Positions 25,616 through 50,466 of a stretch of 51,186 bases of DNA are shown here, one piece after another; position 1 is the first letter of the stretch, and each line of letters starts with the position of its first letter. Below the pieces are notes generated by a model that was not told the DNA's origin, searched no databases, and worked only from the letters and a program-made list of their open reading frames with translations. The stretch comes from a virus (lineage: Duplodnaviria; Caudoviricetes): positions 1 to 51,186 of the IMG/VR virus record IMGVR_UViG_3300002461_000224, one strand, 5' to 3'. The position numbers and the translations under genes are program-made.

Positions 25616-26203
25616 ATGAAACTGACCCGTCGTTTCGGGCTGGGCGCGGTCGCGCTTGTTGCGGCCACCGTCCTCGCCCATGCCGCTGGCATGTTCGCCA
25701 ACCTGCCCATCGTGGGCGGCGCTGCCTATTGCGCTCTCTACGCCGGCGACGGCACGACCTGCACCGGCTCTGTCCCGGCTGGTCCGACCGTTCTGACGGG
25801 CACCGAGCTGATTCCGGCCGACACCGGCCTTGCTGGCGGTGCGAGCCCTCAGACAGTCTCCATCGCGGCGCGCTCGCTTGGCGGCGGCCCGACCCAGTAC
25901 TCCACCCCGCTCACTGGCGTTACCCAGGCCGTAGCCGCCGGCACGCGTCAGGTCATCCTTGAGCCTGCCGGCACGATTGCCGCCCACACGCTCACGCTTC
26001 CGGCGGCGTCGCTGTTGACCGAAGGCCAGCGGCTCGGCGTCTGCTCAACGCAGGTCGTGACGGCGCTGACCATCACCCCTGGCTCCGGCACCACTGTATC
26101 AAATACGTTGACCGCTACGCAGGTGCCTTTGGGCACGGGGGGTGCCTTCTGCGCTGAATGGGTTTACGTCAAGTCCGTCACGAAATGGCTAAGGACTCAA
26201 TGA
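25616..26203 (+). CDS. Signal-peptide-bearing, Thr/Gly-rich putative virion decoration/fibre protein
   Basis: MKLTRRFGLGAVALVAATVLAHA leader; 4 Cys; beta-rich. Confidence 0.75.
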   Translation: MKLTRRFGLGAVALVAATVLAHAAGMFANLPIVGGAAYCALYAGDGTTCTGSVPAGPTVLTGTELIPADTGLAGGASPQTVSIAARSLGGGPTQYSTPLTGVTQAVAAGTRQVILEPAGTIAAHTLTLPAASLLTEGQRLGVCSTQVVTALTITPGSGTTVSNTLTATQVPLGTGGAFCAEWVYVKSVTKWLRTQ

Positions 26204-26224
26204 GTTCAGTGGCTTAGGCCGCAC

Positions 26225-26737
26225 ATGCTTAGTTCTCCTCAACTTCGCCAGTTGCTTGATTATGATCCGGCAACTGGCGTCTTTTTGTGGAAGCCCCGGG
26301 CCAACGTCACCAGAACTGAAAAGAGCTGGAACGCGAGGTTCGCAGGCAAACTCGCTGGCCGCATCAACAACCAAGGCTATCGGGAGATCGCCATATTCGG
26401 GAAGCTCTACAAGGCCAGCCGCCTTGCGTGGCTTTACATGACTGGCGAATGGCCGGCCGACATGATCGACCACCAAGATCGGAACAGGGCCAACGATAGC
26501 TTCTCCAACTTACGAGAGGCGACCCCTGCGCAGAATAGTCAGAACGCAAAACCGCGCAGTAATAAGACCGGCTTCCAAGGCGTGTTTCTGCATAAGCCAA
26601 GCGGTCGGTTCACGAGCCAAATCCAGGTCGCCCGGCAGCGCATCAGCCTCGGGTACTTCGACACACCAGAGTTAGCCCATCAAGCCTACGTGGAAGCCTT
26701 GAGCATCCATCACGGCGAGTTCGCATATCCCTCATAA
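26225..26737 (+). CDS. HNH-AP2 homing endonuclease
   Basis: YDPATGVFLW, RLAWLY, IDH.D.N..N...NLR, LGYFDTPE. Confidence 0.9.
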   Translation: MLSSPQLRQLLDYDPATGVFLWKPRANVTRTEKSWNARFAGKLAGRINNQGYREIAIFGKLYKASRLAWLYMTGEWPADMIDHQDRNRANDSFSNLREATPAQNSQNAKPRSNKTGFQGVFLHKPSGRFTSQIQVARQRISLGYFDTPELAHQAYVEALSIHHGEFAYPS

Positions 26738-26766
26738 CCCGGCGAAAGCCTCAGGAGTTTGCAGCC

Positions 26767-27207
26767 ATGCCCGCTATTGCGCGCGTTCTTCCATGGTTCC
26801 GCCAGATCACTGGCGAGACCGTCAACAGCCTCATCGATGCTGTGAACAACTTGACCGGCTTTGGTACGCCGCAAGCTGTTTCATCGTCCGGTGAGGTATT
26901 CGCACTGTCCGCGCTCACGACCAACGGCGCGATCAGTCCAACGACCCCGGCGAACTACGTCATCACCAAGGCTGGTGTGCTCGCCGATACGCTCGCAGCA
27001 CCCACCTCCGATGGCATCGTCATCAAGATTACGTCCGCCACGGCAAACGCCCACACCATCACCGCCACCGGCCTGCTCCAGACAGGAGCCGGAGCGAACG
27101 TCAACCAAGCTGCGCTTGCCGCCCAGCCTGGCGCTGGCATCACGCTCATGTCCTATCAGGCCAAATGGTACGTGATCGGCTCGGTCGGAACCGTAACATA
27201 CAGCTAA
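26767..27207 (+). CDS. Putative head decoration/structural protein
   Basis: T/A/G-rich beta protein; AGGAG RBS. Confidence 0.65.
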   Translation: MPAIARVLPWFRQITGETVNSLIDAVNNLTGFGTPQAVSSSGEVFALSALTTNGAISPTTPANYVITKAGVLADTLAAPTSDGIVIKITSATANAHTITATGLLQTGAGANVNQAALAAQPGAGITLMSYQAKWYVIGSVGTVTYS

Positions 27208-27219
27208 TGGAGAGTAGCA

Positions 27220-27474
27220 ATGCCTTTGAAAGCTGCAGACGCCCTGCTGGCCTCGTTTCAGGGGATCAATACCGGCCCAGGCCCCATCTCACTCCCGGGC
27301 GCTAGGGTCGGCGATTTCATAACGACGATCGAAGAAGCCGGTAATTTTCAAGATTTCCGCCCGCTCTTCGAGCAGACAATCTCAGTAGATGATGAGATTC
27401 AGCAGACCGCTACGGCACCCCTGGCAGCCAATACTTTCACCGCCGTGTTGGTTCGAGAGATCGCGGTCTCGTAA
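27220..27474 (+). CDS. Putative small structural protein
   Basis: GARVGD...FEQTISVDDEIQQ. Confidence 0.6.
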   Translation: MPLKAADALLASFQGINTGPGPISLPGARVGDFITTIEEAGNFQDFRPLFEQTISVDDEIQQTATAPLAANTFTAVLVREIAVS

Positions 27475-27482
27475 GGCACAGC

Positions 27483-27731
27483 ATGATCTCGCAAGAGCTA
27501 ATAGCCGCGATCGGCAGGCTCTTGCGGGACATGCCGCGTAACCAAGCCGCTATCGAAGTAGGCGAGGCATTGAACAAGGCCGTAGCTTCTACTCCCGTAG
27601 TCTCTACGCCAGCCACCAAGCCTGTAGCTTCTACATCATGCCCCGACTGCGAACGACGCAGGCAGAGCAAAAACAAGTCCATGAAGAAGTGGCGGTCAAA
27701 GGCCAATGTCACCTCAGCCTCAGCCGGTTAA
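27483..27731 (+). CDS. Hypothetical protein with CPDC motif and basic tail
   Basis: ORF preceding terS. Confidence 0.55.
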   Translation: MISQELIAAIGRLLRDMPRNQAAIEVGEALNKAVASTPVVSTPATKPVASTSCPDCERRRQSKNKSMKKWRSKANVTSASAG

Positions 27732-28005
27732 GAAAACCGACAATAAGCACAAACTGCCCCCGGGCCCCGGTCGGCCCAAAGGCGCGCCCAACAAAACCAC
27801 GGCATTGCTCAAGGACGCCATCCTCAAGGCGGCGGAACAGGCCGGGGGCAAGGAGGGCGTGGTCGGCTATCTCAAGGTCCAGGCCAAGAAGAACCCGGGC
27901 CCGTTCATGGCGCTCCTCGGCAAGGTGCTCCCGATGCAGATAGCAGGACCGGACGGCGGCGAGTTGAAGATCATCATCCAGGGACCGGATGCCGGGCTCC
28001 TTTGA
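27706..28005 (+). CDS. terS: Terminase small subunit
   Basis: GRPKGAPNKTT; FMALLGKVLP; directly upstream of terL. Confidence 0.85.
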   Translation: MSPQPQPVKKTDNKHKLPPGPGRPKGAPNKTTALLKDAILKAAEQAGGKEGVVGYLKVQAKKNPGPFMALLGKVLPMQIAGPDGGELKIIIQGPDAGLL

Positions 28006-29335
28006 ACTGACGCCGAAGCAGACCGAGGCGACCAAGCTTCTCGGTTCGCCGGCCACCCATACGATGCTCTACGGAGGCTCACGGTCGGGCAAGACGTTCA
28101 CCATCATCCGGGCCATCATCACCCGGGCGCTGGCCCACAAGAGCCGCCATGCGGTCCTGAGGTATCGGTTTAACCACCTCAAGGGCTCGGTGATCTACGA
28201 CACGCTGCCCAAGGTGATGGAGCTTTGCTTCCCGGGCGTGGCCGACCTGAGCCACATGGACAGGTCGGATTGGTTCTACACGCTGCCCAATCGGTCCGAG
28301 ATTTGGTTCGGCGGCTTGGACGACAAGGAGCGGACGGAGAAGATCCTCGGGCAGGAATACGCCTCGATGTTCCTGAACGAGTGTTCCCAGATCCCTTGGA
28401 CCTCGCGCAACATCGCCATGACCCGGCTGGCGCAACTGACGCCGCTGCGGCTCCGGGCCTATTACGACTGCAACCCGCCCAACGAGGCCCATTGGACCAA
28501 GCGGGTGTTTGTGGACCGGATCGACCCGGACACGCGGACGCCGTTCCGCAACAAGGACAACTTCACCTCCATGGTGATGAACCCGGCCGACAACGCCGGG
28601 AACCTGCCAAAGGAATATCTGGACGAACTGAACGCGCTGCCCGAGCGGATGCGGCGGCGCTTCATGCTCGGCATGTTCGGGACCGCTGCAGAGGGCGCGC
28701 TCTGGACGCTGGAGAGCATCGACCGCGGGCGCGTGCTGGATGGGGTCTATCCCGAGCTGCAGCGCATCGTCATCTCGGTTGACCCGTCGGGCTGCTCGGG
28801 GCCGGAAGACGTCCGCTCCGATGAGGTGGGCATCATCGTGGTTGGGCTCGGCATCGATGGCCGCGCCTACGTCCTAGAGGATTTGTCGGGCCGCTTTGGC
28901 CCAGGTGGGCCGCAGGGCTGGGGCCAGATCGTGGCCTCTGCGTTCGACCGCCACGGCGCCGATTGCGTGGTCGCTGAGACCAACTTCGGCGGCGACATGG
29001 TTCATGAGGTGATCCGGGTCGCAAGGCCGCGGACGCCGTTCAAGAAGGTCACCGCATCGCGGGGCAAGGTTGTGAGGGCCGAACCGATTGCGGCGCTCTA
29101 CGGCTCGGAGAACGACGTGGGGAAGGTTTCTCACGTCGGGATATTCCCAAAGCTTGAGGATCAGATGTGCGGGTTCACGACGGCCGGCTATGCGGGCGAC
29201 CGATCGCCGGATCGCGCGGATTCGCTTGTGTGGGGATTAGCCGAGTTGTTCCCGGTCCTGTCGAAGCCTCCGAAGGTCGGGGTCTCGGTCTCCGTGCCGC
29301 CGCCGCCGACCTCGCCGCAAGCATGGATGGGCTGA
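27989..29335 (+). CDS. terL: Terminase large subunit
   Basis: YGGSRSGKT, DCNP, ISVDPS, ETNFGG, SPDRAD. Confidence 0.95.
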   Translation: MPGSFELTPKQTEATKLLGSPATHTMLYGGSRSGKTFTIIRAIITRALAHKSRHAVLRYRFNHLKGSVIYDTLPKVMELCFPGVADLSHMDRSDWFYTLPNRSEIWFGGLDDKERTEKILGQEYASMFLNECSQIPWTSRNIAMTRLAQLTPLRLRAYYDCNPPNEAHWTKRVFVDRIDPDTRTPFRNKDNFTSMVMNPADNAGNLPKEYLDELNALPERMRRRFMLGMFGTAAEGALWTLESIDRGRVLDGVYPELQRIVISVDPSGCSGPEDVRSDEVGIIVVGLGIDGRAYVLEDLSGRFGPGGPQGWGQIVASAFDRHGADCVVAETNFGGDMVHEVIRVARPRTPFKKVTASRGKVVRAEPIAALYGSENDVGKVSHVGIFPKLEDQMCGFTTAGYAGDRSPDRADSLVWGLAELFPVLSKPPKVGVSVSVPPPPTSPQAWMG

Positions 29336-29339
29336 AATA

Positions 29340-29795
29340 ATGGCAAAGTTCCCACGGTTGGAAGCGATGCGGGCACAACGCCAGCGTCGCGAGGAAGAGG
29401 CGTGCGCTCCTGTCCTCGGCATGCTGCGGCTCTCGCAAGAGCGCGCACGGGGCCTTGAGAAGTCGCTGCGGTCATTGGAGACCGTGGTTGCGTCAAAGAT
29501 TGGCGACCATTTGTTTGAGGAGATAGGCTATCGGGTCGGCCAAGAGCTACGGCAGCAAATTCACAAGGCCGTGCTGAAGAGTGGGGCTGGCCGCGAGCCG
29601 GTCACCATTACGATCGACCCGTCTACGCTTGCGTTCATGGACCCATCCGCTGTTGAGCGGATGGTTCTTGACCAATGCAGGAGGAATCTCCCGAGCACCA
29701 TGCGGGTGAGCGCTGACGTGGTGCCGCAGGAATGCGCAACGATCCTCACCATTTCGCTCCCGTCACTGCACCACCGCACAGTGCTGGCTGCCTAA
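29340..29795 (+). CDS. Hypothetical protein between terL and portal
   Basis: Fills the gap exactly. Confidence 0.65.
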   Translation: MAKFPRLEAMRAQRQRREEEACAPVLGMLRLSQERARGLEKSLRSLETVVASKIGDHLFEEIGYRVGQELRQQIHKAVLKSGAGREPVTITIDPSTLAFMDPSAVERMVLDQCRRNLPSTMRVSADVVPQECATILTISLPSLHHRTVLAA

Positions 29796-29798
29796 CGC

Positions 29799-32048
29799 AT
29801 GGAGCAGCGCGGCAAGTTCCCCTTCAAGCCACCGGAGGAAGAGAAGCTAATCACCCGAGCCCAGAAGCAGTTGAAGGCCTTCATGGATTGGGAGGGGAAG
29901 TTCCGGCAGTCGTTCGTGAACGACGTGCAGTTCGCCAACGGGGACTCGGACAACAACTGGCAGTGGGATGGTGAGGTGCTGACCTCGCGTGCCGGCGCGC
30001 CCTCCATGACCATCAACATGACGCTGATCCATTGCCTGCTGGTACAGAACGACATCAAGAAGAACCCGCCTGCGATCACGGTGCGACCGACCGGGATGGG
30101 GGCGACCACCAAGTCGGCCGGCATCTATGGCGGGCTGATCCGGGAGATATCCCGGGCCTCGGACGCGACCAACATCTATCTCAAGGCCTCGGAGCACCTG
30201 ATACAGGGCGGGGTGGGCTACTGGCGGGTGCTGACGGAGTACGAGAGCGAGGACAGCTTCGACCAGGTTATCCGCATCAGGAGCGTCCGCAGCCCCATGG
30301 GCGTGGCAATGGACCCCGATGCCAAGGAGCCATCAGGCGCCGACGCCAAATGGGGCCAGATATTCGAGGACGTGAAGAACGAAGACCTCGAGGAAGAGCA
30401 CGCCAAGTACAAGGACCAGATCGGGGCCGGCAATGCTGTGCTGCAGACCGGGGCTGACTCGGCTTGGCAGAACAAGGACCACACCCGGGTTGCCGAGTGG
30501 TACGAGAAGGAGCTGTTCGAGGACCGGCTGATCGGGTTCACGAGCGAGACCACGGGCAAGCTGGTGACGCAGTTCGCCAGCGACATTGCATCCGAGGTGC
30601 TGCAGCAGCTCCTCAAGGACGGGGCTCAAACCCGCAAGGTCGTCCGCTCCCGCATCTGCTGGTATAAAATCTTCGGCAACAAGATCGTCGACTACCGGGA
30701 AGTCCCCGGCAAGAAGTACATCCCGATTGTCCGCGTGGTTGGTCAGGAGACCATCATCGACGGCAACCTCGACCGCAAGGGGATGGTGCGGAACCTGAAG
30801 GATCCGCAGCGGAACATGAACTACTGGGTCTCGGCGGGTGCCATGCAGGTGGCGCTGCAGACCAACGTGCCATGGGTTGGCCCGGCCAAGGCGTTCGAGA
30901 ACATCACGGCGTGGCAGGACGCGAACGTAAAGCGCTACGCCTATCTGCCGTATAACCATGTGGACGACCAGGGCGAGCCGATCCCGGCCCCTACGCGCCC
31001 CGCGCCGCCGGTGCTGGCCTCGGCCTACATCAACGGCATCCAGATCGCGTCGCAGCAGTTCAAGGACATCTCGGGCCAGCACGAGGCCACGCAGGGGGCG
31101 GACGGCAACGAGCGCTCAGGCGTGGCGATCGACAACCGGAAGATTCAGGGCGAGACTTCCACCTATCACTTCCCCAACGCGCTCGCGATGGGAGTGGCGC
31201 ACACTGGGCGGATCATCGTGGACATGGTTCCCGAGGTCTACGACACGCCGCGGCTGATCCGTATCTCCAACGTGGATATGAGCCAGACCGACGTCCAACT
31301 CGATCCCAGCGCCCCGCAGGCCCATCAGGAGGCCGACAAGCCGGACGAGGAGAACGCCACCGAGGCCATCTGGAACCCCAAGATTGGTTCCTACGAGGTC
31401 GAAGCGGAAGCCGGGCCGGACTACTCGACGCAGCGCGAATGGACCGTGGACACGATGGGCGCGATCCTGGCCCAGAACAAAGACCTCTGGACCGTGGTGG
31501 GCGACCTGTTCGTGGAGAACATGGACTTCCCGGGCGCGGAGGAGATGGCGGAGCGGATCCGGCGGACCATGAACCCGGCTGTGCTGGGCAAGGGGCCGAG
31601 CCCGAACGAGCAGAGCCTGCAGGGCCAACTCGATCAGGCGGGCAAGCTCATTCAGTCCTTGGTGGAGTCCGTCGCCGAGAAGCAGCGGCTGCTCGACAAC
31701 AAGGACGAGGAACTTACGATCAAGGCCGAGGCCGAGTTCACGCGGCGCATGGACGCCGAGTCTCGCCGCATCAAGGAGGCCGGGAACGCTCAGGCCAACT
31801 TCGCGGCGGCCGGGCTGGAACCGGATATCCGCAACGTGATGAACGACGCCACAGCGGAAGCCATGAACGACGATCTCGCCGAGGTCTTGAACACGCGCAA
31901 GGCAGAAGCCGAGGCGGAGGACGAGCCTGTCGATGGCGGCGAGGACGCTACGTCGCCAATGCCCGGCGCGCGGCTGGCCCCCGATGGCAAGCACTACATC
32001 TCGGACCCGGAAAGGCCGGGCAAGTACCTGCAGATAGCAGATGCCTAA
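29799..32048 (+). CDS. P22-like portal protein
   Basis: 749 aa; GMVRNLKDPQRNMNY, SGVAI, GPDYSTQR. Confidence 0.93.
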   Translation: MEQRGKFPFKPPEEEKLITRAQKQLKAFMDWEGKFRQSFVNDVQFANGDSDNNWQWDGEVLTSRAGAPSMTINMTLIHCLLVQNDIKKNPPAITVRPTGMGATTKSAGIYGGLIREISRASDATNIYLKASEHLIQGGVGYWRVLTEYESEDSFDQVIRIRSVRSPMGVAMDPDAKEPSGADAKWGQIFEDVKNEDLEEEHAKYKDQIGAGNAVLQTGADSAWQNKDHTRVAEWYEKELFEDRLIGFTSETTGKLVTQFASDIASEVLQQLLKDGAQTRKVVRSRICWYKIFGNKIVDYREVPGKKYIPIVRVVGQETIIDGNLDRKGMVRNLKDPQRNMNYWVSAGAMQVALQTNVPWVGPAKAFENITAWQDANVKRYAYLPYNHVDDQGEPIPAPTRPAPPVLASAYINGIQIASQQFKDISGQHEATQGADGNERSGVAIDNRKIQGETSTYHFPNALAMGVAHTGRIIVDMVPEVYDTPRLIRISNVDMSQTDVQLDPSAPQAHQEADKPDEENATEAIWNPKIGSYEVEAEAGPDYSTQREWTVDTMGAILAQNKDLWTVVGDLFVENMDFPGAEEMAERIRRTMNPAVLGKGPSPNEQSLQGQLDQAGKLIQSLVESVAEKQRLLDNKDEELTIKAEAEFTRRMDAESRRIKEAGNAQANFAAAGLEPDIRNVMNDATAEAMNDDLAEVLNTRKAEAEAEDEPVDGGEDATSPMPGARLAPDGKHYISDPERPGKYLQIADA

Positions 32049-33438
32049 CAAGCTGATGGCCCCCGTGGAAGATGACCCGTTCGCGGGGCAGGCGGGGGCG
32101 TTCGGAGTGGCGTCGCCGGGTGAGTTGGCGAACGTGCAGCCGAACATCCTGAACAAGATATTTGGGGGCTTGGTCAACAGCCTCGTCACGCTGCCGAAGC
32201 GGGCGGTTGATGCGTCTGCCAATAGGCTGATGGGCGGCGACTATGACCCGGGCCCGGTCCTTGAGGCAGCAATGCTGCCAATGGGCACGGGCGCGATTGC
32301 TGGCGTCCCCATGCGGGCGGGCGAGGCGGTCTTGGGCGCGGGTCCGATCCGCGCCTATCACGGCTCGCCGCACGACTTCGACAAGTTCTCAATGTCGAAG
32401 ATCGGCACGGGCGAGGGCGCGCAGGCTTACGGGCATGGGTTGTATTTTGCGGAGAGCGAGGGCGTAGCAAGAAGCTACCGCGACGCGCTCCAGCAGTTCA
32501 GCATTAACGGGAAAGCGGCGGACGGGATGGACCCTTCCCACATCGCGGCGGTCACCCTGAAAAACTACGGCGGGAATAAAGCCAAGGCGATTGACGATTT
32601 GCAGATGGTGGCAACGCGGGGGCCCGAGGCGGAGCGCGGTGCGGCAAGCGAGGCATTGGATATGCTTCGGTCAGACGCCACCCTCCCTAAAGTCTCTGGC
32701 GGCAAGATGTACGAGGTCCAGATCAAGGCCGACCCGGACCACTTTCTGGACTGGGATAAGGCGCTGAAGGACCAGCCGAAGGCGATCCAAGATTTATACA
32801 ACGCCAAAATCGTGGGCGGGCTCAAAACGCGCGAGCTAGGGGTTAATCCGAACCTCGGGCCGCTGACGGATGTGATCCACCCCGACGGTGGCAGTTTGGG
32901 TGTCTTCACAAAGGAACAACTCCCGGACGTTCTAGCCAACCCCGCGAAGTATGTTCCGGCGAGGGGGGAGAACTTCTACCGGAGCCTGCATGAAGATGCG
33001 ATCCGGGGCGGGAAGCCCGAGCCTGCGAAGGTCAAAGAACTGCAGGTTGTCGATCAACTGCGCAATGCCGGCATCCCCGGCATCAAGTACCTAGACCAAG
33101 GCTCGCGCGGTGTCCCGACTGTTGGCAATGGCCGTGTGGCCGGCCGGGGTGATGGCAAGTTCGATATCGTGGATGACTTCGGTGTGCAGGCCGGTCCCTT
33201 CGATACGAAGGCCGAGGCTATGCAGTACCTCAACCCCGAAAAGAACATGACCCGCAACTTCGTAGTGTTTGACGACAAGCTGGTCGACATCATCAAGAAG
33301 TACGGCATTGCCGGGCTGTCGATGATGCCGCCCGCGACCGCCGCGTTTCTGTCCAACCGCATCAAGCCGGTAGAGCACGACCCATTTGGGCCGGCGCTGG
33401 TGGCTGTCGACCACGACCCGTTCGCGGAGAAACTATGA
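32041..33438 (+). CDS. ADP-ribosyltransferase-like (ART-PolyVal-type) domain protein
   Basis: AYHGSPHDFDKF...GEGAQAYGHGLYFAE...NFVVFD; DPF repeats at both termini. Confidence 0.65.
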   Translation: MPNKLMAPVEDDPFAGQAGAFGVASPGELANVQPNILNKIFGGLVNSLVTLPKRAVDASANRLMGGDYDPGPVLEAAMLPMGTGAIAGVPMRAGEAVLGAGPIRAYHGSPHDFDKFSMSKIGTGEGAQAYGHGLYFAESEGVARSYRDALQQFSINGKAADGMDPSHIAAVTLKNYGGNKAKAIDDLQMVATRGPEAERGAASEALDMLRSDATLPKVSGGKMYEVQIKADPDHFLDWDKALKDQPKAIQDLYNAKIVGGLKTRELGVNPNLGPLTDVIHPDGGSLGVFTKEQLPDVLANPAKYVPARGENFYRSLHEDAIRGGKPEPAKVKELQVVDQLRNAGIPGIKYLDQGSRGVPTVGNGRVAGRGDGKFDIVDDFGVQAGPFDTKAEAMQYLNPEKNMTRNFVVFDDKLVDIIKKYGIAGLSMMPPATAAFLSNRIKPVEHDPFGPALVAVDHDPFAEKL

Positions 33439-38034: not shown

Positions 38035-38042
38035 CGAAGCAA

Positions 38043-38074: not shown

Positions 38075-38085
38075 ATGGAGACCAC

Positions 38086-41429: not shown

Positions 41430-41875
41430 CGGAGGCCGACGAGGTTGCCTTTACGGCTGCGTTTGATCGTTTTTTCAAGGGGAATGCTGCTGCTGCTCGG
41501 ATGTGCGCTGATTTTGTTACGGTGGCTCATGTCTGGGATGATCTGGTGGACGCGGACCAGCCTGTTGCGGCCGACGTCGCGGACATGGCGTTCCGGAAGA
41601 TGATGCTGGAGATACCGGCAAACGAGTTCTACCGCGCCAACTTCCCCTTCCTGCAGCCGGTCATTGTGATGATCTGGGCGCAATGGGATGCGGCGACGCG
41701 GATGGAAGAGGCCCCGGCGCGCGGCGACCGTGAGAAGTCCTTCATGCTGCGGGCCTCGCTCTATCAACTGTTCCACGCCTGCGCGGTGCTCTGCGGCGGG
41801 CTCGACTGGGCGGCCGAGGTCGGCCCCGAGATTTACCGCCTGTACGGCGAGAGCCTGGAGACGTTCGATGCCTGA
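41426..41875 (+). CDS. Helical protein with DDxxD motif
   Basis: HVWDDLVD; IPANEFY. Confidence 0.75.
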   Translation: MTEADEVAFTAAFDRFFKGNAAAARMCADFVTVAHVWDDLVDADQPVAADVADMAFRKMMLEIPANEFYRANFPFLQPVIVMIWAQWDAATRMEEAPARGDREKSFMLRASLYQLFHACAVLCGGLDWAAEVGPEIYRLYGESLETFDA

Positions 41876-42641
41876 TCCGGTGACGGGAGTCATGGGTGCC
41901 GCCAGCGTCGGCTCCGGCATTGCCAACATCTTTGGTGGGCAGAGCGCGGCGAAGGCGCAGAAGGAAGCGGCAGCCAAGGCGGCTGCAGCCACGCTTGCGC
42001 AACAGGAAAAAGGCCTGCAAACGCAGAAGGACTATTTCGACATCGGCGCGGACTCGCTGCGGCCCATTTCCGAGGCCGGCGCTGGCGTCTATGCCGATCT
42101 GGTCGAGCAACTGCCGGAACTCACCGCGCCGATCGTGATGGATCAGGCGGCGCTGGAGAAAACCCCCGGCTATCAGTTCAACCTCAAGCAGGGCATCCGC
42201 GGCGTCGACCTGTCGGCGATCAGCAAGGGTCTCAGCGGGGCGCAGGCCAAGGCGGCAGCGCAATTCGCGACCGGGCTGGCCGACAACACGTACCAAAACC
42301 AGTTCAACAACGCGAACACCAACAAGACGAACGCTTTCAACCGGCTGCTGCAGACCGCTACGGTGGGCACCGATGCGTCCAAGGCGCTGGCGGGCAATGC
42401 GACCAGCGCGGGCAACGCGGCTCTGGGCAACGCTACATCGGTCGGCAACAGCCTAGGCTCGTATGAGATCGGCGCGGGCGACGCCGCGGCCGCCGCAGCC
42501 AACAAGACCGGCGCGCAGGTGGGCAACATCATCCAAGGCGTCGCGGCTCCGTTCAACGCCAACAGGCTGCTGAGTCCGGTTGGCGGCGGCGGCATGTACG
42601 GCGGCACCAACAACCCGACCCGCATTGGGAGCCTGTACTGA
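41868..42641 (+). CDS. DNA ejection protein (P22 gp7-like)
   Basis: G/A-rich hydrophobic N-terminus; TPGYQFNLKQG. Confidence 0.8.
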   Translation: MPDPVTGVMGAASVGSGIANIFGGQSAAKAQKEAAAKAAAATLAQQEKGLQTQKDYFDIGADSLRPISEAGAGVYADLVEQLPELTAPIVMDQAALEKTPGYQFNLKQGIRGVDLSAISKGLSGAQAKAAAQFATGLADNTYQNQFNNANTNKTNAFNRLLQTATVGTDASKALAGNATSAGNAALGNATSVGNSLGSYEIGAGDAAAAAANKTGAQVGNIIQGVAAPFNANRLLSPVGGGGMYGGTNNPTRIGSLY

Positions 42642-44098
42642 TGGCCGACGTTTCAAGCTACGCCATCCAGAGCAACGCCAATCCGAACGAGCAGACCAAC
42701 AACCTGCTCGACACCATGGCCAAGGCCAACGAGGTCAAGCGGCAGAATATCGGCATCGACGCGGCCAAGTTTGAATTGGCCATGAAGAACATCGGCGCGG
42801 TCAACTCCACCATCGCGGGCCTGCTCGGCGATCCCGAAGCCGGCAAGGGCGACATTTCCAAGAAGATCATCGACGCCACGACCCGGCTCGTAAAGGACAG
42901 CGTTTACACGGCGCAGCACGTCACCGAAGCGCTGAAATCGATGCCTCTCGACCCGACGCAGCAGAAACAGTGGCTCCAGAACCTCTATTCGCAGACACAG
43001 GGCGCGGAGCAGCGGGCACAATCGTTCTTTGGCGGCGTGCAAGGCGTCTCGGACGCCGCCGGCACCAATCTCATCCAGCAGCCGGGCTATCCCAATCTCC
43101 CCTCCGTCAACCGCGGCTACGTCGCGAACCAGCTCCCGCCGACGACACCCGCCGTGCAGGGAGACCCCAACAAGCCGAATTATGGCGCGGGCGGCTATGT
43201 CGGCCCATCAGGGCCTCCCGGCCTCCAGCAGCCCCGTGGCGCTGGTGGGCCGCCCCCGGGCTTCCCATCCGCACCGGGCGCCATGCCTGCCACGCCAGAG
43301 GCCCCGTCGCGGGCCATGGTGCCGTCTACGCCGAGAGTGGTCGGAGACCGCGAGGCCGTAGCAAGTGGGCTCTACGAGGGCGCCACGCCCGCCCAGCGCG
43401 TTGCCGGAGCGCATGAAGCGGCAAGGCCGATGAGTTCGCTGCCGCCTGACGTGGTTGCCGCGCGCGCGGGAGCGACCCAAGGCTATACCGACATGATGGC
43501 CGCGGCCGGCAAGTTCGCCCAGCGCATCAACCCCCTGCGGTCGGCCATCCCGATCCTGGAGAAGATGAAGGAAACCGATATCGGCCCGACCTCGGAGCGC
43601 TGGAACGATATCAAGTCGACCGCCCAGACGCTGGGGGCCGGCAAGATCATCGGCGGCATCGATCCCGAGAAAATCCGCGACTACAACGAACTCAAGAAGT
43701 ATTTCAACCAGTACACGGCGCAGGCCGCCGCCACGATGGGGCCGAAGACCAACGAAGGACTCGCCACGGCGGTCACGTCCAATCCGAACGTCAATATGGA
43801 CAAGCTGTCGGCTACCGACCTGTCCAAGGTCGCGCTCGGCGTCGAACGCATGCAGCAGGCCGGCGCGCTCGAGTTCAACGAGATGGTGCAGGCCGGCAGG
43901 GCGCAGCCCGGCGACCTCAGCCGCTTCATGCTGAAGTGGGGCACCGAGCAGGATCCGAGGGCCTTCGTCTACGACATCATGGACCGGAAGGCGCAGGACA
44001 AGGTGAAAAAGTTGCCGGCATCGGAGCGCGCCAAGGTCGCCGAGGGCATGAGGATTGCCGAGAAGTGGAAGCTGCTAGGGGATGTCCATCGTGAGTGA
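42641..44098 (+). CDS. DNA ejection/internal virion protein (gp20 position)
   Basis: Position and composition. Confidence 0.7.
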   Translation: MADVSSYAIQSNANPNEQTNNLLDTMAKANEVKRQNIGIDAAKFELAMKNIGAVNSTIAGLLGDPEAGKGDISKKIIDATTRLVKDSVYTAQHVTEALKSMPLDPTQQKQWLQNLYSQTQGAEQRAQSFFGGVQGVSDAAGTNLIQQPGYPNLPSVNRGYVANQLPPTTPAVQGDPNKPNYGAGGYVGPSGPPGLQQPRGAGGPPPGFPSAPGAMPATPEAPSRAMVPSTPRVVGDREAVASGLYEGATPAQRVAGAHEAARPMSSLPPDVVAARAGATQGYTDMMAAAGKFAQRINPLRSAIPILEKMKETDIGPTSERWNDIKSTAQTLGAGKIIGGIDPEKIRDYNELKKYFNQYTAQAAATMGPKTNEGLATAVTSNPNVNMDKLSATDLSKVALGVERMQQAGALEFNEMVQAGRAQPGDLSRFMLKWGTEQDPRAFVYDIMDRKAQDKVKKLPASERAKVAEGMRIAEKWKLLGDVHRE

Positions 44099-46139
44099 CG
44101 ACATCTTCGCCCGCTACTCGCGCGGGGCCAGCAAGCCGAAGGAGGAGGTTGTCGTCGTCCCCAACGACGATATCTTCACGCGGTTTGACCGGCCGGCCGA
44201 GGTGGTTGCGGCGAAAGCGGCACCCAAGGCCGCCCCCAAAGCCGAGCCCCGTGTTGACCTCGGTTCCGGGTTCCAGAACCGGATGGCGAGCAGCGTGCCG
44301 ATCCTTGGGCCTATCTTTGACAAGGCCACGGCGGCGACCGGCGCCGCAGTTGAACCGCTCGTCAGCGAAGAGGCCGCGGGCAAGTCGTTCGGCCAACGCT
44401 ACGGCGAAAACGTCGCCTTGCAGGAGGAAAAGAACCGCCTTTACGGAGAAGAAAACCCCGTGAGGGCGTTTGGCGCCGATGTCCTCGGCTCCGCCATGCT
44501 TTTCGGGCCGATGGGCGCGACGAAATGGGGCTCCCGCGCGCTCGGCATGGTCGGTTCCAGCCTCGGGACGAAGGTGCTGCAAGGTGCCGGCGGGATGGCC
44601 GGAATCGAGACGGCCAACCAACTCCTCAAGGGCAACGATCCCCGAGACCAAGGCTTCACCGGCCCCGTTCCGCTTGCAGCGGCCGGAGGAGCCGCAGGGC
44701 CGATGCTGGGCGAGGCTATTTCCTCTGGCGCCAACAGGCTGTTCAATATGCTGCCGCGCACCAGCGGTCCCCTAAAGGGCACCAACACCATCACCCGCAA
44801 CAGACTGACGGACGCCATCGAGGGCGAAACCGAGGCATCTATCGCGGCGGCCAAGGAAGCACACGGCAAATCCGGCATGTTGATGGATATCAACCAGGGC
44901 ACGCGCGACATCGCGGGCGGGCTGGCCGATATTCCGGGCCCCCACAAGGGCCAAATCCGCGAAACGCTCCGGCAGCGGGGCGCCGGGCAGGCGGATCGGC
45001 TGATGGACTCGCTCAACAAGAACGCTGTGCCGCAGGTTAAGATTGCCGACCTCGTGAAGACGGTCGAAAACTCCCAAAGTGCGGAGGCGGGGCCGCTTTA
45101 CACCCAATTCCGCACCATGCGGGTGGCACCGACCAAGGAAATCAAGGATTTGCTGCCCCGTTTGGAGAAAGCGGGTGCATTCAAGCTGGCCGACGAGCTT
45201 TCCGGCATCAGCGGCCGGCAGATGGAGCAGAATTTCTTCACGGGAGGTCCCAACAAGGCGTTCCCGACCGCCGAGGCATGGGATTACGTCAAGCGCGGCC
45301 TCGATCGGCGCATCAGTTCGGCTCTTGACGGCGGCGACAAGGAGCTTTCCCGCGAATTGGTCAAGCTGAAGTCCGACATGCTGTCCGAAATCGGCAAAAC
45401 CCCGGCCGGCAAGGTCTGGCAAAAGGCCAGGCAGACCTTCGCCGAGCACGCCGAGATCAAGCACCAGATCGAGGAGGGTCAGAAGACCTTCAGCAGGGCC
45501 ACAAGGGCCGATGATTTGGCCCAGGAACTGGCCAACCTAAGCTATCCCGAGCGCGCCGCGCGCCAGCAGGGGGCCAGAGACGCCATCCAGCAGGTGATAG
45601 ACAACAGCCTGAGGGGCGACACGACCGCCCGCAACCTGCTGCTGACCCGCGCAGGCCGCGAAAAGATGGATTTGCTGTTCGGCGACAAGCGGGCAGGCCG
45701 GCTTATCAAGGATCTGGAGGCAGAACTGAACGTCTCCAAGAACACCAACGAGATCGTAGGGGGCAGCCCGACATCCTCAAAGCAGGCGCGGCGCGACGGG
45801 TTGCTGCCGCAGCGCTCGGAACCCGGCTATCTCCGCAATATCGACCTCACCCGCCCGTCCACGCTGATTCCGGACTGGATGACGCCGCAGGCTATGATGG
45901 AGGGGGCAGCCGCGGCACGTCACGGCGCGTCTCATCAGCAATTGGCCGATCTGATGAGGATGCGGACAGATGCGCCCGGATTCGATCATCTAGTGACTGA
46001 GATTCGGAATGAAGGTGCTCGTCAAGCGAGCCGTAATGCTCAGTTTGATCGGGCTGGGCGCGCGACTTCGCTTGCTCTTCAGACCATTGCGCCTGCTGTG
46101 CGGAACAGACTTCTTGAAGGGCCAGACGCTCGTAAATGA
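44082..46139 (+). CDS. DNA ejection/internal virion protein (gp16 position)
   Basis: 685 aa helical; G/A-rich hydrophobic segments; GGSPT. Confidence 0.75.
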   Translation: MSIVSDDIFARYSRGASKPKEEVVVVPNDDIFTRFDRPAEVVAAKAAPKAAPKAEPRVDLGSGFQNRMASSVPILGPIFDKATAATGAAVEPLVSEEAAGKSFGQRYGENVALQEEKNRLYGEENPVRAFGADVLGSAMLFGPMGATKWGSRALGMVGSSLGTKVLQGAGGMAGIETANQLLKGNDPRDQGFTGPVPLAAAGGAAGPMLGEAISSGANRLFNMLPRTSGPLKGTNTITRNRLTDAIEGETEASIAAAKEAHGKSGMLMDINQGTRDIAGGLADIPGPHKGQIRETLRQRGAGQADRLMDSLNKNAVPQVKIADLVKTVENSQSAEAGPLYTQFRTMRVAPTKEIKDLLPRLEKAGAFKLADELSGISGRQMEQNFFTGGPNKAFPTAEAWDYVKRGLDRRISSALDGGDKELSRELVKLKSDMLSEIGKTPAGKVWQKARQTFAEHAEIKHQIEEGQKTFSRATRADDLAQELANLSYPERAARQQGARDAIQQVIDNSLRGDTTARNLLLTRAGREKMDLLFGDKRAGRLIKDLEAELNVSKNTNEIVGGSPTSSKQARRDGLLPQRSEPGYLRNIDLTRPSTLIPDWMTPQAMMEGAAAARHGASHQQLADLMRMRTDAPGFDHLVTEIRNEGARQASRNAQFDRAGRATSLALQTIAPAVRNRLLEGPDARK

Positions 46140-46305
46140 CACGTATCAAGCCGCCCATGACGCCGCCAACGAATATCGCGGTGAATGCGCCGGCCGTTGT
46201 TTGCAGGAAACCAGTCGACGCCATCCACGCAAGGATGCCGAACCCGACCACGTAAGTCAGAACCACCAGCCGGCCGTGCTTCGTAAGTAACGGTTCGCGC
46301 GCCAT
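45892..46305 (-). CDS. Antisense two-TM membrane protein, possible superinfection exclusion
   Basis: Two hydrophobic helices in the intergenic part; 3' end overlaps the ejection gene. Confidence 0.5.
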   Translation of the reverse strand: MAREPLLTKHGRLVVLTYVVGFGILAWMASTGFLQTTAGAFTAIFVGGVMGGLIRVIYERLALQEVCSAQQAQWSEEQAKSRAQPDQTEHYGSLDEHLHSESQSLDDRIRAHLSASSSDRPIADETRRDVPRLPPPS

Positions 46306-46318
46306 TCAGGAAAATTCG

Positions 46319-46411
46319 ATGCTCTCATTCAGGAGCCGCGTTCGCGCGGCGTTCCTCGGCCTTGCTTTGGTCGGATCATACGCCGGTTCGGTTCAGGGCG
46401 GAACCCTGCTC
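46319..46411 (+). pseudogene. Orphaned 5' segment (signal peptide plus TLL) of the tail-fibre gene
   Basis: MLSFRSRVRAAFLGLALVGSYAGSVQGGTLL; AGGA RBS; TLL recurs at 47193-47201. Confidence 0.6.
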
Positions 46412-47107
46412 TCGGGCGGCTCGTTTGTTCCTCCAAGGGGCGCCCGGGCCATTGACGGCATAGAAGTTGGTCGCCTCTTGATACGAAACCCCCAGTCTTT
46501 TGGCTCGGTTCCCGATGCAACTCCCGGATATTCCGAGTTCCCGGCTCGCCTCGGCAACGGTCAGATTGATGCCCTTGATGACCACGCGGCGGTTAAAACT
46601 GCCCCGGTTTCTCTCTTGGGTGTCCCAGTCCGCCCAACGACAATTTCCGGGTTCGTAGTTCCCTTCACTTCGGATTCTATCCAGCGACAGACCTGCGGGA
46701 ACTTCGCCCATGTCGGCGAGGAAATTCTCGAACGACGCCATCCATCGCTCGCAAACGGTAATCCCGCGCGCCCCGTAGAGGCGAAATTCCTTGGTCTTTG
46801 GGTTGTAGCAGCGCTGCTTCATCCCGCTCCAGCAATTGTAGGTCCGCGAATACTGGGTGCGGCTTCGGTGCCCGTGCGTGCCTTTCCACTGGCTGCCCTG
46901 TTCTCGGGCCAAGCAGCCGCACGATTTGGTGTTGCCGCACCGGAGTTTGTTTTCCTCAACAACGGTTTCTCCGCCGCAGGAGCAGCGGCATGAGACGCAA
47001 TAAATCTTGTGCCCGTTCTTTTTCCTCAGCTTTGGATCGGCCTGCCCAATGACTGTCAATCGTTCAAAAACCTCGCCTGGTTGGATTGGCCGCCGTGCCG
47101 TTGACAT
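46376..47107 (-). CDS. HNH-type homing endonuclease, antisense to late genes
   Basis: RLTVI, CRCSCG, TKSCGC, WSGMKQRC, YGARGI, SLDRI...GNYEPGNCRWA; GGAG RBS. Confidence 0.9.
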   Translation of the reverse strand: MSTARRPIQPGEVFERLTVIGQADPKLRKKNGHKIYCVSCRCSCGGETVVEENKLRCGNTKSCGCLAREQGSQWKGTHGHRSRTQYSRTYNCWSGMKQRCYNPKTKEFRLYGARGITVCERWMASFENFLADMGEVPAGLSLDRIRSEGNYEPGNCRWADWDTQERNRGSFNRRVVIKGINLTVAEASRELGISGSCIGNRAKRLGVSYQEATNFYAVNGPGAPWRNKRAAREQGSALNRTGV

Positions 47108-48713
47108 CGCTCGCTCCGCTTGTGTGGGGGGACTATCATGGTTACTGGTTGCTACGATTTTTACAAGCACGAATAACCCTGCAAAATCAGCTACTTTGCT
47201 CCCAAATGGAATGCAGTATTTTGCGGACTCCAACGGGCTCCCGTTGTCCGCTGCCTGCGTCTATTTCCTGATCCCCGGCACGATGAGCCCCAAGGCCACC
47301 TACCAGGATGCCGGCCAGACCATCGCCAACACCAACCCGGTCCAACTGGACGCGGCGGGCCGGGCGATCATTTACGGGACCGGCACCTATCGGCAGATCG
47401 TCAGGGCGTCGAACGGGACCATTACGCCGTGCTCGCCGGCGGGAACCCAGATTTGGGACCAGCTTACCGCCTCGACGGACTCCTCGGCCACGATCTTTGC
47501 TGGCCCCTCGGCCGGGACGCCGAACGCCATCACGGTCAATGCGCCTGCGTTCTCCGGGACCGATGGTCAGGTCATCAACTACATCTCGACCAACACGAAC
47601 ACGGCGGCGGCGACGCTCAATCCTTCCGGGTTTGGGGCGGTGCCGATCGTGCGGGACTCGGCAACCGGGCCCGGGGCGCTGACCGGCGGCGAACTGGTCG
47701 CCACGAATGCCGTTTCCGTCATCTACGACGCCACGGCAGGCACGTTCCACATCCTGTCCCCGGTGACATGGCCGAACACTTCGGGCGTCCCGGTGGGCAC
47801 GACAATCGAGGTGAGCGGCTTCACGGCGCCGACCAACTACGCCTTCGCCTATGGGCAGGAGATTAGCCGCACGACGTACTCCTCCCTGTTCGCGGTCCTG
47901 ACGGCCGGACAGGCCGGGACGATCTCGAGCGGGTCCCCAACCATCACGGGTTTGACCGATACGACGCAGTTCGGCCGCGGCATGCCGGTGGAGAGCGTCG
48001 GCATCAACCCCGGCACCACGATCCTGAGTTGCACGTCGACCACCTGCGACATGAGTTCCAACGCCACGGTCTCGCGCTCGGGGACCATGACGTTCTTTGC
48101 CTATAGCGCGGGCGACGGGTCGACCACGTTCAACCTGCCGGACTACCGCGGCATGGTTCTGGTTGCCCGGGACAATCTCGGCGGCACGGCGGCGAACCGG
48201 GTTCAGGTCACCACGACGCTGACCACCACGGCGACCTCCACGTCGGCAACGGTGGCCTCCGCCACGGGCCTCCAGCTCGGGATGGTCGTCACCAGTGCAA
48301 ACGTGGTGAGCGGCACCACCATCACCGCCATCAGCGGGACCACCCTTACCCTGAGTTCTCCGGCCTCTGGCTCGGCCATCGGTGCCGGGGCGCGGTTCAG
48401 CCCGTTCGCTGACGCCCAGGTTCTCGGCGTCGGCACCGCCGTCATGAGCGGCACCTTGGTCACGGCCAACCTGCCGCCCTATACGCCGGCGGGCACGAAC
48501 ACGGCCGGCGCGGCTTCCTACACGTTCAGTTCGGCGTCGTTCACTCCGGGCGCCAACGCCGTGCAAGGCACCTCCATCAGCGCCGGCGGCGGCACAGCCT
48601 CGCAGTTCACCAACCCGACCTTCGGTGGAACGCCGCAGGGCGGCACCAGCATCCCCTTCAGCGTCATCCAGCCGTCCCGCACCGTCAACCGCGCAATCAA
48701 GTTGGTGCCATGA
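47049..48713 (+). CDS. Tail fibre with tail-collar domain; start uncertain
   Basis: NTNPVQLDAAGRA; GQEISRTTYSSLF; GDGSTTFNLPDYRG; QPS. Confidence 0.88.
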   Translation: MTVNRSKTSPGWIGRRAVDIARSACVGGLSWLLVATIFTSTNNPAKSATLLPNGMQYFADSNGLPLSAACVYFLIPGTMSPKATYQDAGQTIANTNPVQLDAAGRAIIYGTGTYRQIVRASNGTITPCSPAGTQIWDQLTASTDSSATIFAGPSAGTPNAITVNAPAFSGTDGQVINYISTNTNTAAATLNPSGFGAVPIVRDSATGPGALTGGELVATNAVSVIYDATAGTFHILSPVTWPNTSGVPVGTTIEVSGFTAPTNYAFAYGQEISRTTYSSLFAVLTAGQAGTISSGSPTITGLTDTTQFGRGMPVESVGINPGTTILSCTSTTCDMSSNATVSRSGTMTFFAYSAGDGSTTFNLPDYRGMVLVARDNLGGTAANRVQVTTTLTTTATSTSATVASATGLQLGMVVTSANVVSGTTITAISGTTLTLSSPASGSAIGAGARFSPFADAQVLGVGTAVMSGTLVTANLPPYTPAGTNTAGAASYTFSSASFTPGANAVQGTSISAGGGTASQFTNPTFGGTPQGGTSIPFSVIQPSRTVNRAIKLVP

Positions 48714-49555
48714 TGAGAAAACTTCTTGTTGCGGCCCTAGTTTGCTTGCTGGGGGCCACGGCCGCGCACGCCCAGAAAACCAAGGCGGAGATCAGCGCGG
48801 AGATTATCACGCTGTTCCCCGACAATACCGTGGGGGCGATCACGCCGACGGCACTGCGCACGGTGACGAACGACCTCGCCATCTCGATCATGCCGACCGC
48901 GCCGGTGGTTTCCGGGAACCTTGCGTGCTTCAGCGGCACGACCGGGCTGCTGTCGGACTGCGGCCTTGCACCCCCGGCCAGCGCCATCGTCGGCATCAAC
49001 GACACCCAGACCCTGACCAACAAGACCCTGACGTCCCCGACCATCACGGGGGCCACGATCTCGACCTCGGTCCTTGCATCCCCGACCATCACGAGCCCCA
49101 CCATCACCACGGCGCTCACCGCAACCGGGCTGGTGAAGTATTCGGACCTCGCCACCGCGGCGATCGCGACCGCCTCGAACTATTACTCGGCCGCGGCGAA
49201 CACCGTGGTTCCGGCGAGCGTGATCTACCCGAGCGAGGTGACGATTACCTACGGGGCCACGACGACGGTTGATTTCGACACCCTCATCAACGGCGCGGTC
49301 ACCCTTACCGCCAACATCACGACGCTGACGCTCACCAATGTTAGGGCGGGCAAGGCCGGGCAGATCAGGTTCATCCAGTCCGGGGCGGGTTCCTTCACAT
49401 GGCCCGCCGGCGGGAACACCATCCTCAAATATGCCGGCGGCGTGCTGCCGACGCTCACGACCGGATCGGCAACGGCGGTTGACGTGCTGACCTATTCCTG
49501 CAGCAGCGCGACCTTCTGTCTTGCCGCGCTGGCCAAGGACGTCCGCAACCCATGA
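48710..49555 (+). CDS. Signal-peptide-bearing tail fibre-like protein
   Basis: MMRKLLVAALVCLLGATAAHA; TQTLTNKTLTSPTI; PTLTT...VDVL. Confidence 0.8.
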   Translation: MMRKLLVAALVCLLGATAAHAQKTKAEISAEIITLFPDNTVGAITPTALRTVTNDLAISIMPTAPVVSGNLACFSGTTGLLSDCGLAPPASAIVGINDTQTLTNKTLTSPTITGATISTSVLASPTITSPTITTALTATGLVKYSDLATAAIATASNYYSAAANTVVPASVIYPSEVTITYGATTTVDFDTLINGAVTLTANITTLTLTNVRAGKAGQIRFIQSGAGSFTWPAGGNTILKYAGGVLPTLTTGSATAVDVLTYSCSSATFCLAALAKDVRNP

Positions 49556-50466
49556 GCCTGCGCCGGGCGCTGCTGGGAGGCCTCGTAGCGCTTCTGGCGC
49601 TGCCGCTGGGCGCGCGCGCGAACATGCCCGGCACCTACATGCCGGTGCAGGGATCGGTGCTGTCGTGCACCGGCGGCAGCGTCAGCACGACCGGCAATTT
49701 CACGGTCCACACGTTCACGTCCAGTTCCAACCTGGTCTGCGTGGGATCGGGGTCGGTCACCTACCTCCTTGTCGCGGGCGGTGGGGGAGGTGGCGGCGGG
49801 ACGGATTCGGGCGGGGGCGGTGCGGGCGGCGTCATAGCCGGCGGCGAAACACTCGCCGCAGGCACGTTTGCCGTGGTTGTGGGCGCCGGTGGTACGGGCG
49901 GCGACTCGGCGGGCGCCAACTGCACCTCTGGCGGAAACTCGACCTACAACAGCCACACGGCCGGCGGCGGGGGCTGCGGCGGTGCCGTGCTGCTCAACGG
50001 TCTCACGGGCGGCAGTGGCGGCGGTGGCGGCGGGCAGGCGGCCTCGACGGGCGGCGCGGTGAACGGGCTCGGGACGGGCAACTCTGGCGGTCCCGGCGTC
50101 ACCGGCGGCGGCGGGGCTCCGCGCGCGGCGGGCGGCGGCGGTGGCTGCGGCGGCAACGGCGTGACTGGCAGCGGCGCCGGCGGCGGCGGGGGCGGCAATG
50201 GCTGCTCCAACTCAATCACGGGGTCCGCGGTGACCTATGCGGGCGGCGGGGCCGGCGGCAACGAAGGCGTCACCAACTCCAATATCAGCGGCGGCACCGG
50301 TGGCGGTGGCGGTACGGCGGGCGGTGCCGGGGGCGGCGCTGGCGTGGCGGGCACCAATGGTCTCGGCGGAGGCGGCGGCGGGGCAACCCGCAACGGCGGG
50401 GCAGGGAGCTTTGCCGGCGGCAACGGCGGATCCGGTGTCGTGATCGTCAGATATCCAACCCCATAG
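49552..50466 (+). CDS. Signal-peptide-bearing glycine-rich fibre-tip protein
   Basis: MSLRRALLGGLVALLALPLGARA; VHTFTSS; YLLVAGGGGG; GGSGVVIVRY. Confidence 0.85.
   Translation: MSLRRALLGGLVALLALPLGARANMPGTYMPVQGSVLSCTGGSVSTTGNFTVHTFTSSSNLVCVGSGSVTYLLVAGGGGGGGGTDSGGGGAGGVIAGGETLAAGTFAVVVGAGGTGGDSAGANCTSGGNSTYNSHTAGGGGCGGAVLLNGLTGGSGGGGGGQAASTGGAVNGLGTGNSGGPGVTGGGGAPRAAGGGGGCGGNGVTGSGAGGGGGGNGCSNSITGSAVTYAGGGAGGNEGVTNSNISGGTGGGGGTAGGAGGGAGVAGTNGLGGGGGGATRNGGAGSFAGGNGGSGVVIVRYPTP

Follow-up and report, generated by a model that had tools for sequence, protein, structure and literature searches.

Organization of the appendage genes

The window analyzed here is the whole viral record IMGVR_UViG_3300002461_000224, one contig of 51,186 bases, and we consider four of its plus-strand genes, which encode appendage-type proteins with predicted export leaders. 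The gene at 25616–26203 encodes an exported-type, two-domain, appendage-like protein of 195 amino acids (aa). The main tail fibre or tailspike (47049–48713, 554 aa) was assigned by a Collar domain (PF07484, E = 2e-10) and by tail-fibre PHROGs; it follows the ejection genes, and two further genes lie 3′ of it, namely, those of a second fibre, trimeric by prediction (48710–49555, 281 aa), and of a glycine-rich fibre-type protein (49552–50466, 304 aa). At the junction between the leader and the mature part of the main fibre, a gene of an HNH homing endonuclease (phrog_374, E = 2.3e-61) is located on the minus strand at 46376–47107, preceded by an orphan remnant of the ancestral fibre leader on the plus strand (46319–46411).

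Leaders and cysteines of the appendage proteins

Leaders were called with a simple home-made heuristic, not with SignalP, using features of the Sec pathway and signal peptidase I (SPase I), that is, a positive n-region, an uncharged hydrophobic h-region of approximately 10–15 residues, and small residues at positions −3 and −1. All four proteins pass this heuristic, and the Sec/SPase I-type features can be read directly in their translations. The leader of the 25616 protein (25616–25684, 23 residues) ends in AHA and has twin arginines at residues 5–6, that of the 48710 protein (48710–48772, 21 residues) also ends in AHA, and that of the 49552 protein (49552–49620, 23 residues) ends in ARA, with twin arginines at residues 4–5; all three have a basic start and an uncharged hydrophobic core. 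Signal peptides with these AHA, AHA, and ARA sites had been reported in an earlier, sequence-only reading of this DNA, and they are indeed present in the translations.

The same reading mentioned the twin arginines, which exist in the two window leaders but are not conserved, as most homologues have a single Arg or Lys. Given that the Tat consensus is S/T-R-R-x-F-L-K, this makes the Sec pathway more likely than Tat, and Tat export was rejected. A lipoprotein signal, processed by signal peptidase II, was rejected as well, since there is no Cys at the predicted cleavage sites, and cysteines within some leaders occur without a constant lipobox.

The mature parts contain four cysteines in the 25616 protein, the 48710 protein, and the main fibre, and six in the 49552 protein, in agreement with the counts and the close pairs quoted previously. 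Also as previously claimed, cysteines are absent from the coat, the two large ejection proteins (42641 and 44082), and the 26767 and 27220 proteins; yet the cytoplasmic virion proteins TerL, the product of 39541, and the portal contain six, six, and two, respectively, and hence cysteines are not exclusive to the leader-bearing proteins.

Conservation of the leaders in the 25616, 48710, and 49552 families

The real test of the leaders against chance is their conservation throughout homologues. The 25616 family comprises 256 metagenomic homologues, and the leader was flagged in 119 of the 120 that were listed. The sole unflagged homologue, P0122, is a 170-aa gene call beginning at Met26. This call removes a leader of the 25616 type, and automatic annotation may hide such leaders in general. 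In the family alignment, the frequency of the top residue is 0.45 in the h-region vs. 0.71 in the mature part, with 98% of the h-region residues being uncharged; thus, the leader is conserved as a property rather than as a sequence, which is how signal peptides evolve. The four cysteines, forming pairs 39–49 and 143–179, are retained in 116–120 of 121 aligned rows, and a mature part with four cysteines is seen in 114 of 120 proteins; Cys143 and Cys179 are jointly absent in five rows and singly in none. A tblastn search of phage records with the 25616 protein yielded only Ralstonia phage P-PSG-11 (E = 7e-4), and the label of one homologue gives a Bradyrhizobium metagenome-assembled genome (MAG) as its origin.

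The protein encoded at 26767–27207 (146 aa) is leaderless and Cys-free, and its profile alignment with the 25616 family is suggestive. Sequence relatedness of the 25616 family to this protein or to the 48710 protein's C-terminal domain was nevertheless rejected, since neither alignment is significant (hhalign E = 0.24 and 0.22, respectively).

In the 48710 protein, a conserved N-terminal domain is joined by a repeat shaft to a C-terminal knob, and each of the two end domains has one cysteine pair (73, 84 and 264, 270, respectively). We found 142 homologues, and the leader was flagged in 107 of the 120 listed. Among proteins with the N-domain motif, the leader and the cysteine pair are both present in 61 out of 63. 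In P0022 the leader is buried inside an over-long gene call, and P0117, the only leaderless homologue of this N-domain, lacks both cysteines; the cysteine counts in this set are even in 59 proteins and odd in one. No match to the 48710 protein was found by tblastn in 50,697 phage records.

The glycine-rich 49552 protein matches PF21722 (Gly_rich_2) with residues 64–301 (27.6 bits, cut-off 24.3) and phrog_2295 (E = 2.7e-42). Its homologue in the related viral contig L001 has the same leader and the same NMPGT start. The broad PF21722 family is mostly leaderless (8 of 120 flagged, with the mean number of cysteines 3.9 vs. 1.5), in a search that was dominated by low-complexity words and did not have the close relatives among its matches. 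The 49552 protein and that of L001 form part of a leader-bearing subgroup of this family.

Interruption of the main fibre gene by a homing endonuclease

The leader of the main fibre differs from the other three. The sequence-only reading had placed it at 46319, which holds historically, as the remnant at 46319–46411, about 31 codons up to the TLL motif, shows homology at both the DNA and the protein level with the beginning of the fibre gene in the related contig L003, where there is no HNH gene and the leader runs directly into the TLLPNG motif. It is not the working start, however. The open reading frame (ORF) 46319–46993 (224 aa) has a GC content at third codon positions (GC3) of 0.56 vs. 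0.82–0.86 in its neighbours and is mostly antisense to the HNH gene, and hence it is not real as a 224-aa protein. The HNH gene, with its ATG at 47107 and GGAG upstream, fills nearly all of an insert of approximately 0.8 kb, and its homologue in contig L002 is 70% identical.

In the window, as well as in the HNH-bearing contigs L002 and L016, the fibre frame restarts at a Met, the first ~20 codons overlapping the start of the HNH gene on the opposite strand; in the window, this yields a substitute leader of 47 residues (47049–47189), followed by the mature part from 47190, which begins with the TLLPNG motif and has an N-domain matching phrog_26190 (E = 1.5e-9). The replacement leaders of the three contigs have a different hydrophobic stretch in each, and all have a small-x-small site just before the motif. 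L002 and L016 likewise retain an orphan leader of the identical type upstream of the HNH gene. It follows from the orphan leader upstream and the new start downstream that the HNH cassette severed the old leader and that a replacement leader has been maintained; here, a homing endonuclease cassette provides the gene into which it is inserted with a substitute signal peptide. No Rfam intron was detected in 45900–47500 at E up to 1.

Leader-bearing and leaderless forms of the fibre N-domain

The leader observation extends far beyond the window, as comparison of fibre homologues confirms. In all 12 related viral contigs that were read, the fibre has a leader that ends in small-x-small directly before a TLLPNG-type motif, and these leaders are of at least five unrelated sequence forms. 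Leaderless tailspikes, in which Met immediately precedes the motif, are encoded by phages PAE2, P4282, and P26218 and by two complete podovirus genomes derived from metagenomes. PAE2, P4282, and P26218 were matched by tblastn with the N-domain, the identity being 52% (PAE2) and 50% over ~90 residues. As the leaderless tailspikes start at the motif, the predicted cut by signal peptidase would recreate the normal tailspike N-terminus to within one or two residues.

A HMMER search with the first 100 residues of the mature fibre produced 10,090 matches among 1.84 billion proteins. The best 150 cluster representatives fall into two classes by the start of the N-domain, which is at residues 2–5 in 86 proteins or at residues 20–35, after an N-terminal extension, in 64. 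The heuristic passes 57 of the 64 extended and none of the 86 unextended representatives, and most of the other seven extensions resemble leaders with wrong or cut starts. Among the top matches, the N-domain of leader-bearing forms is 57–80% identical to the query.

The two classes also differ in the parity of cysteines. Leader-bearing representatives have an even number in 45 cases, an odd number in six, and none in 13, vs. 30, 43, and 11, respectively, for leaderless ones (Fisher odds ratio 10.75, p = 8.5e-8, a value that overstates independence, since the 150 representatives are mutually related). The correlation between leaders and cysteine pairs across homologues, proposed as a check in the sequence-only reading, is thus seen in parity and in the joint loss of Cys143 and Cys179 in the 25616 family. 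Even parity and joint loss support the view that the cysteines of the exported forms are paired and oxidized.

A leaderless fibre candidate was absent among the window proteins scanned against PHROGs. Each of three related records, of which one is 81% complete, has a single copy of the fibre N-domain, and in L018 no fibre gene other than the leader-bearing one lies between the ejection and lysis genes. The order of ejection genes followed by a leader-bearing fibre is also observed in L003, L004, L007, L012–L014, and L018. In the viral contigs L017 and L018, with a GC content of 0.40, the ejection genes are followed by the leader-bearing fibre and then by lysis genes; the same arrangement in these low-GC contigs indicates that the feature is not confined to one host group.

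Fibre genes with leader-like N-termini were also seen in a cultured, temperate phage with another tail type, Bradyrhizobium phage ppBdUSDA122-1 (L025, OP596612.1). Its two genes, at 4281–5729 and 5765–8362, lie 3′ of the gene of its large tail protein and encode 6 and 18 cysteines, respectively.

Predicted structures

The AlphaFold2 (AF2) models of the 25616 and 48710 proteins have predicted local distance difference test scores (pLDDT) of 87.0 and 80.6, respectively. Residues 91–195 of the former match known folds with Z from 9.2 (root-mean-square deviation (rmsd) 2.4, 91 aligned residues) down to 6.6, unrelated entries scoring at most 3.3; the strongest matches (Z 8.2–9.2) are T4 gp10/gp9-like domains of phage spikes. 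Similarly, the knob of the 48710 protein (residues 175–278) has matches that range in Z from 8.4 (rmsd 2.5 over 92 aligned residues) to 6.2, whereas unrelated entries score 3.5 or less. The C-terminal ~100 residues of both proteins share a set of matches, that is, the KP1 baseplate, CBA120 TSP4, T4 gp9 and gp10, the Pa223 capsid spike, and the Solidus tailspike, and fold likeness to such T4 gp9/gp10-like domains does not by itself show function. An Atlas structure search matched residues 135–279 of the 48710 protein to PF26209 (Phage_phiTE_241_C, a C-terminal domain of tail fibres) with a TM of 0.86. The 48710 protein has no match in Pfam at E up to 0.1, and several of its homologues carry PF26209.

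The mature 48710 protein is predicted to form a homotrimer intertwined along residues 46–176, with a score of 0.91 vs. 0.00 for the best of three controls; at least 97% of contacts are common to the runs, and the partner pLDDT is at least 93. The mark for this score is reached by 20 of 30 solved pairs and one of 23 single chains; since the trimer job involved three copies, unlike the calibration, and trimeric fibres have been solved already, resemblance to known structures may account for a part of this result.

Genome context

PHROG scans of the window proteins reveal a P22-like podovirus layout on the plus strand, with genes of TerL (27989), portal (29799), scaffold (35500), coat (36784), adaptor (38568), and an Hc3-type protein (39541). 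Three leaderless ejection-type proteins (phrog_598, DNA ejection, and phrog_5880) are encoded at 41688–46139, immediately 5′ of the fibre. The left arm carries recombination, replication, and methylase genes, along with several HNH endonucleases. At least four HNH genes are present in the window, at 5689–6822 (minus strand), 17691–18212, 26225–26737, and 46376–47107 (minus strand), and perhaps one more at 23609–24052; the one at 26225 has an AP2 domain.

Lysis genes were not recognized in the window by PHROG scans, the region 23.6–25.6 kb having been checked as well, and no terminal repeat was found between 50466–51186 and 1–1500. The relatives are 56–62 kb long, and in L001 the glycine-rich gene is followed on its 3′ side by endolysin, holin-like, and lipoprotein genes (L001 8541–10256). 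Both observations indicate that the right end of the window is probably incomplete, the contig being truncated there. With a GC3 of 0.91, the minus-strand ORF at 50885–51142 could be a true gene.

The nearest coats from cultured phages are those of Pseudomonas phage PAE2 (56% identity) and Acetobacter phage phiAX1 (42%). Megablast of 27989–50466 against cultured phages gave a single, chance-like match of 62 bases, and the host search in GTDB genomes returned one MAG contig only.

Proposed export of the fibre set

According to the textbook view, assembly of tailed phages is wholly cytoplasmic. The comparisons above suggest a different course of events for the viruses studied here. Export and disulfide bonding of the fibre set are well supported by sequence comparison, and the claim of the sequence-only reading that the fibres are exported and oxidatively folded is consistent with leaders conserved at the canonical N-terminus, even cysteine counts, and fibre-like folds; what has to be given up is disulfide formation as the sole reason for export. 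We infer from the same features that the proteins would actually be exported and cleaved, as well as when and where they would be attached. Our preferred explanation is that the whole host-recognition set, namely, the primary fibre, the second trimeric fibre, the glycine-rich fibre-type protein, and the gp10-like two-domain protein, is made with cleavable Sec-type signal peptides and docks at lysis; we put its probability at about 0.55.

In such a scheme, the fibres would cross the inner membrane unfolded, and signal peptidase I would cut them exactly at the canonical tailspike N-terminus, whereupon folding, trimerization, and disulfide formation would proceed in the periplasm. Meanwhile, heads with portal, adaptor, nozzle, and ejection proteins would be built in the cytoplasm, and the fibres would meet the particles only once a holin lesion or lysis merges the compartments. 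The tailspikes of P22 are the last parts to join the particle, and their addition also works in vitro. Late docking is favoured by the conserved virion-binding N-domain, by the failure to find a leaderless fibre or paralogue, by the sole fibre of L018, and by the lack of an internal start in several relatives, so that attachment at lysis is plausible. The N-domain is regarded as virion-binding, likely contacting the adaptor or nozzle, because of the gene position and homology.

In a broader form, the proposal is that two-compartment assembly would be used by a large part of the P22-type podoviruses, as yet uncultured, with Sec export of all receptor-binding proteins, oxidative folding in the periplasm, and docking after holin opening, the leader having been gained, or rebuilt after HNH insertion, many times; we regard this generalization as evenly poised.

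Several observations weigh against the preferred explanation. The simple heuristic has a background, flagging 26 of 342 window ORFs of at least 60 aa (7.6%, spurious ORFs included), and the relatedness of the representatives tempers the parity statistics. Cysteine density is 0.72% both with and without a leader (Mann–Whitney p = 0.87), and so a higher density in leader-bearing fibres was rejected, only the parity being different; furthermore, 13 of 64 leader-bearing fibres are Cys-free, which implies that disulfide formation is not the sole or general reason for export. The C-terminal cysteine pair is kept in some proteins with no detectable leader (P0032, P0039, P0061, and others), some of which may be mis-started or cut gene calls. 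The working leader of the main fibre is unusually long (47 residues) and is not preceded by a clear Shine–Dalgarno sequence. Disulfides occur in the virion of a tail for whose assembly no export is claimed in the abstract of PMC13576161. Finally, with the lysis cassette outside the window, the type and timing of the holin cannot be linked to the fibres.

Alternative explanations

The exported proteins might not be virion parts at all, but periplasmic or released proteins that bind or cleave the receptor, or decoys, as also suggested in the sequence-only reading, the receptor binder of the particle being something else. By trimming or masking polysaccharide on the surface of the infected cell, they would cause superinfection exclusion or free the progeny from debris. 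There are precedents for such proteins: in bacteria, the exported tailspike-like enzyme WceF combines the tailspike fold with a Tat signal peptide (PMC7949094), morons with signal peptides such as lambda Lom occur among tail genes (PMC12309495), and gp40 of phage PBR31, an esterase similar to tail-associated hydrolases, has an N-terminal signal peptide (PMC10975493). The P4282 homologue, moreover, is annotated as “bacteriolytic protein.” Nevertheless, we consider this alternative unlikely: the predicted virion-binding N-domain is highly conserved in the leader-bearing forms, for which there would be no reason if tail binding had been lost, the gene occupies the canonical tailspike position after the ejection genes, and PHROG scans of the window, as well as the surroundings of the L018 fibre, revealed no further fibre or spike candidate. 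A further alternative is to assume dual products, a leaderless virion copy arising from an internal start or inefficient export, and an exported copy with a second role. The window and L002 do have a Met after the motif (ATG 47211) and TTG for one of its two Leu codons, and the 25616 leader is followed by Met26, at which the gene call P0122 starts. These codons are not conserved, however: L012–L015 have CTT CTT and Glu and L018 has ATT TTA at the corresponding positions, the residue before the motif in L012–L015 is Ala or Gly, Met26 is replaced by Leu, Tyr, Ser, or Asn in many 25616 homologues, and the candidate internal start codons lack a Shine–Dalgarno sequence. The codon comparison in L012–L015 and L018 shows that leaderless fibre cannot in general come from an internal start, and the dual-product scheme as a whole appears improbable.

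The leaders could also be uncleaved signal anchors or domains resembling signal-arrest-release (SAR) sequences, which would keep the fibres attached to the inner membrane up to the firing of the holin and release them upon depolarization. In favour of this, Ala, Gly, and Val abound in several h-regions, and tethering that depends on Sec and is controlled by disulfides has a phage precedent in SAR endolysins. On the other hand, nearly every leader ends in small-x-small exactly at the start of the conserved domain, which fits cleavage better than an anchor, and we think tethering has a slim chance; it is in any case a variant of export with cleavage and docking at lysis rather than its opposite. 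A mere artefact, i.e., wrong start codons or chance hydrophobic N-termini and no export, is suggested by the largely spurious ORF 46319–46993 and by the 7.6% background of the heuristic. At this background rate, though, it is unlikely for four neighbouring appendage genes all to be flagged by chance, and family-wide conservation of leaders, the bimodal start of the N-domain, the parity effect, and the rebuilding of leaders after HNH insertion make an artefact extremely improbable.

Should export with late docking be correct, the last step of virion assembly would depend on the host Sec system, signal peptidase, Dsb, and the timing of the holin. Host factors would then be among those that determine phage yield and host range, and structural disulfides in fibres would be accounted for. 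It would also affect genome annotation, given that the P0122 call already trims a 25616 leader, and the heterologous production of fibres and depolymerases.

Comparison with known systems

We found no description of signal-peptide-bearing virion fibres of tailed phages in the literature, supplements and subscription journals not being covered, in line with the statement of the sequence-only reading that no characterized example is known. The nearest counterparts are the tailspikes of the P22/Sf6 type and those of PAE2, P26218 (a Rhodoferax phage), and P4282 (a Ralstonia phage), which have a homologous N-domain, the same position after the ejection genes, and a P22-type coat. In these known leaderless tailspikes, Met stands directly at the domain, and the protein is made in the cytoplasm, whereas the window type has a Sec-type leader of 20–47 residues and an even cysteine count.

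Bacterial proteins offer a likeness in layout. The MAT fibre adhesins of Bdellovibrio (PMC10769870) resemble the 48710 family in having a signal peptide, a conserved N-terminal beta-rich domain, and a variable, phage-fibre-like trimer; unlike the window proteins, they are surface proteins of a bacterial predator, outside any virion structural module. WceF of Pantoea stewartii is likewise a trimer of tailspike fold exported via an N-terminal signal peptide, but it is a chromosomal enzyme of an exopolysaccharide (EPS) cluster that lacks a virion-binding domain and carries a Tat signal (PMC7949094), whereas the twin arginines of the window leaders are not conserved.

Among phage proteins, SAR and signal-peptide endolysins and spanins are late products that use the host Sec pathway, some with periplasmic disulfide chemistry (for a part of them, see PMC3556154, where P1 Lyz is mentioned); they are lysis factors, however, not virion components, and have no fibre fold. 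Finally, lambda Lom (PMC12309495) and the T5 proteins Llp and Cor have signal peptides and are encoded beside receptor-binding genes, but these are small lipoproteins or beta-barrels unrelated to fibres, whereas in the window the fibres themselves bear the predicted leader.

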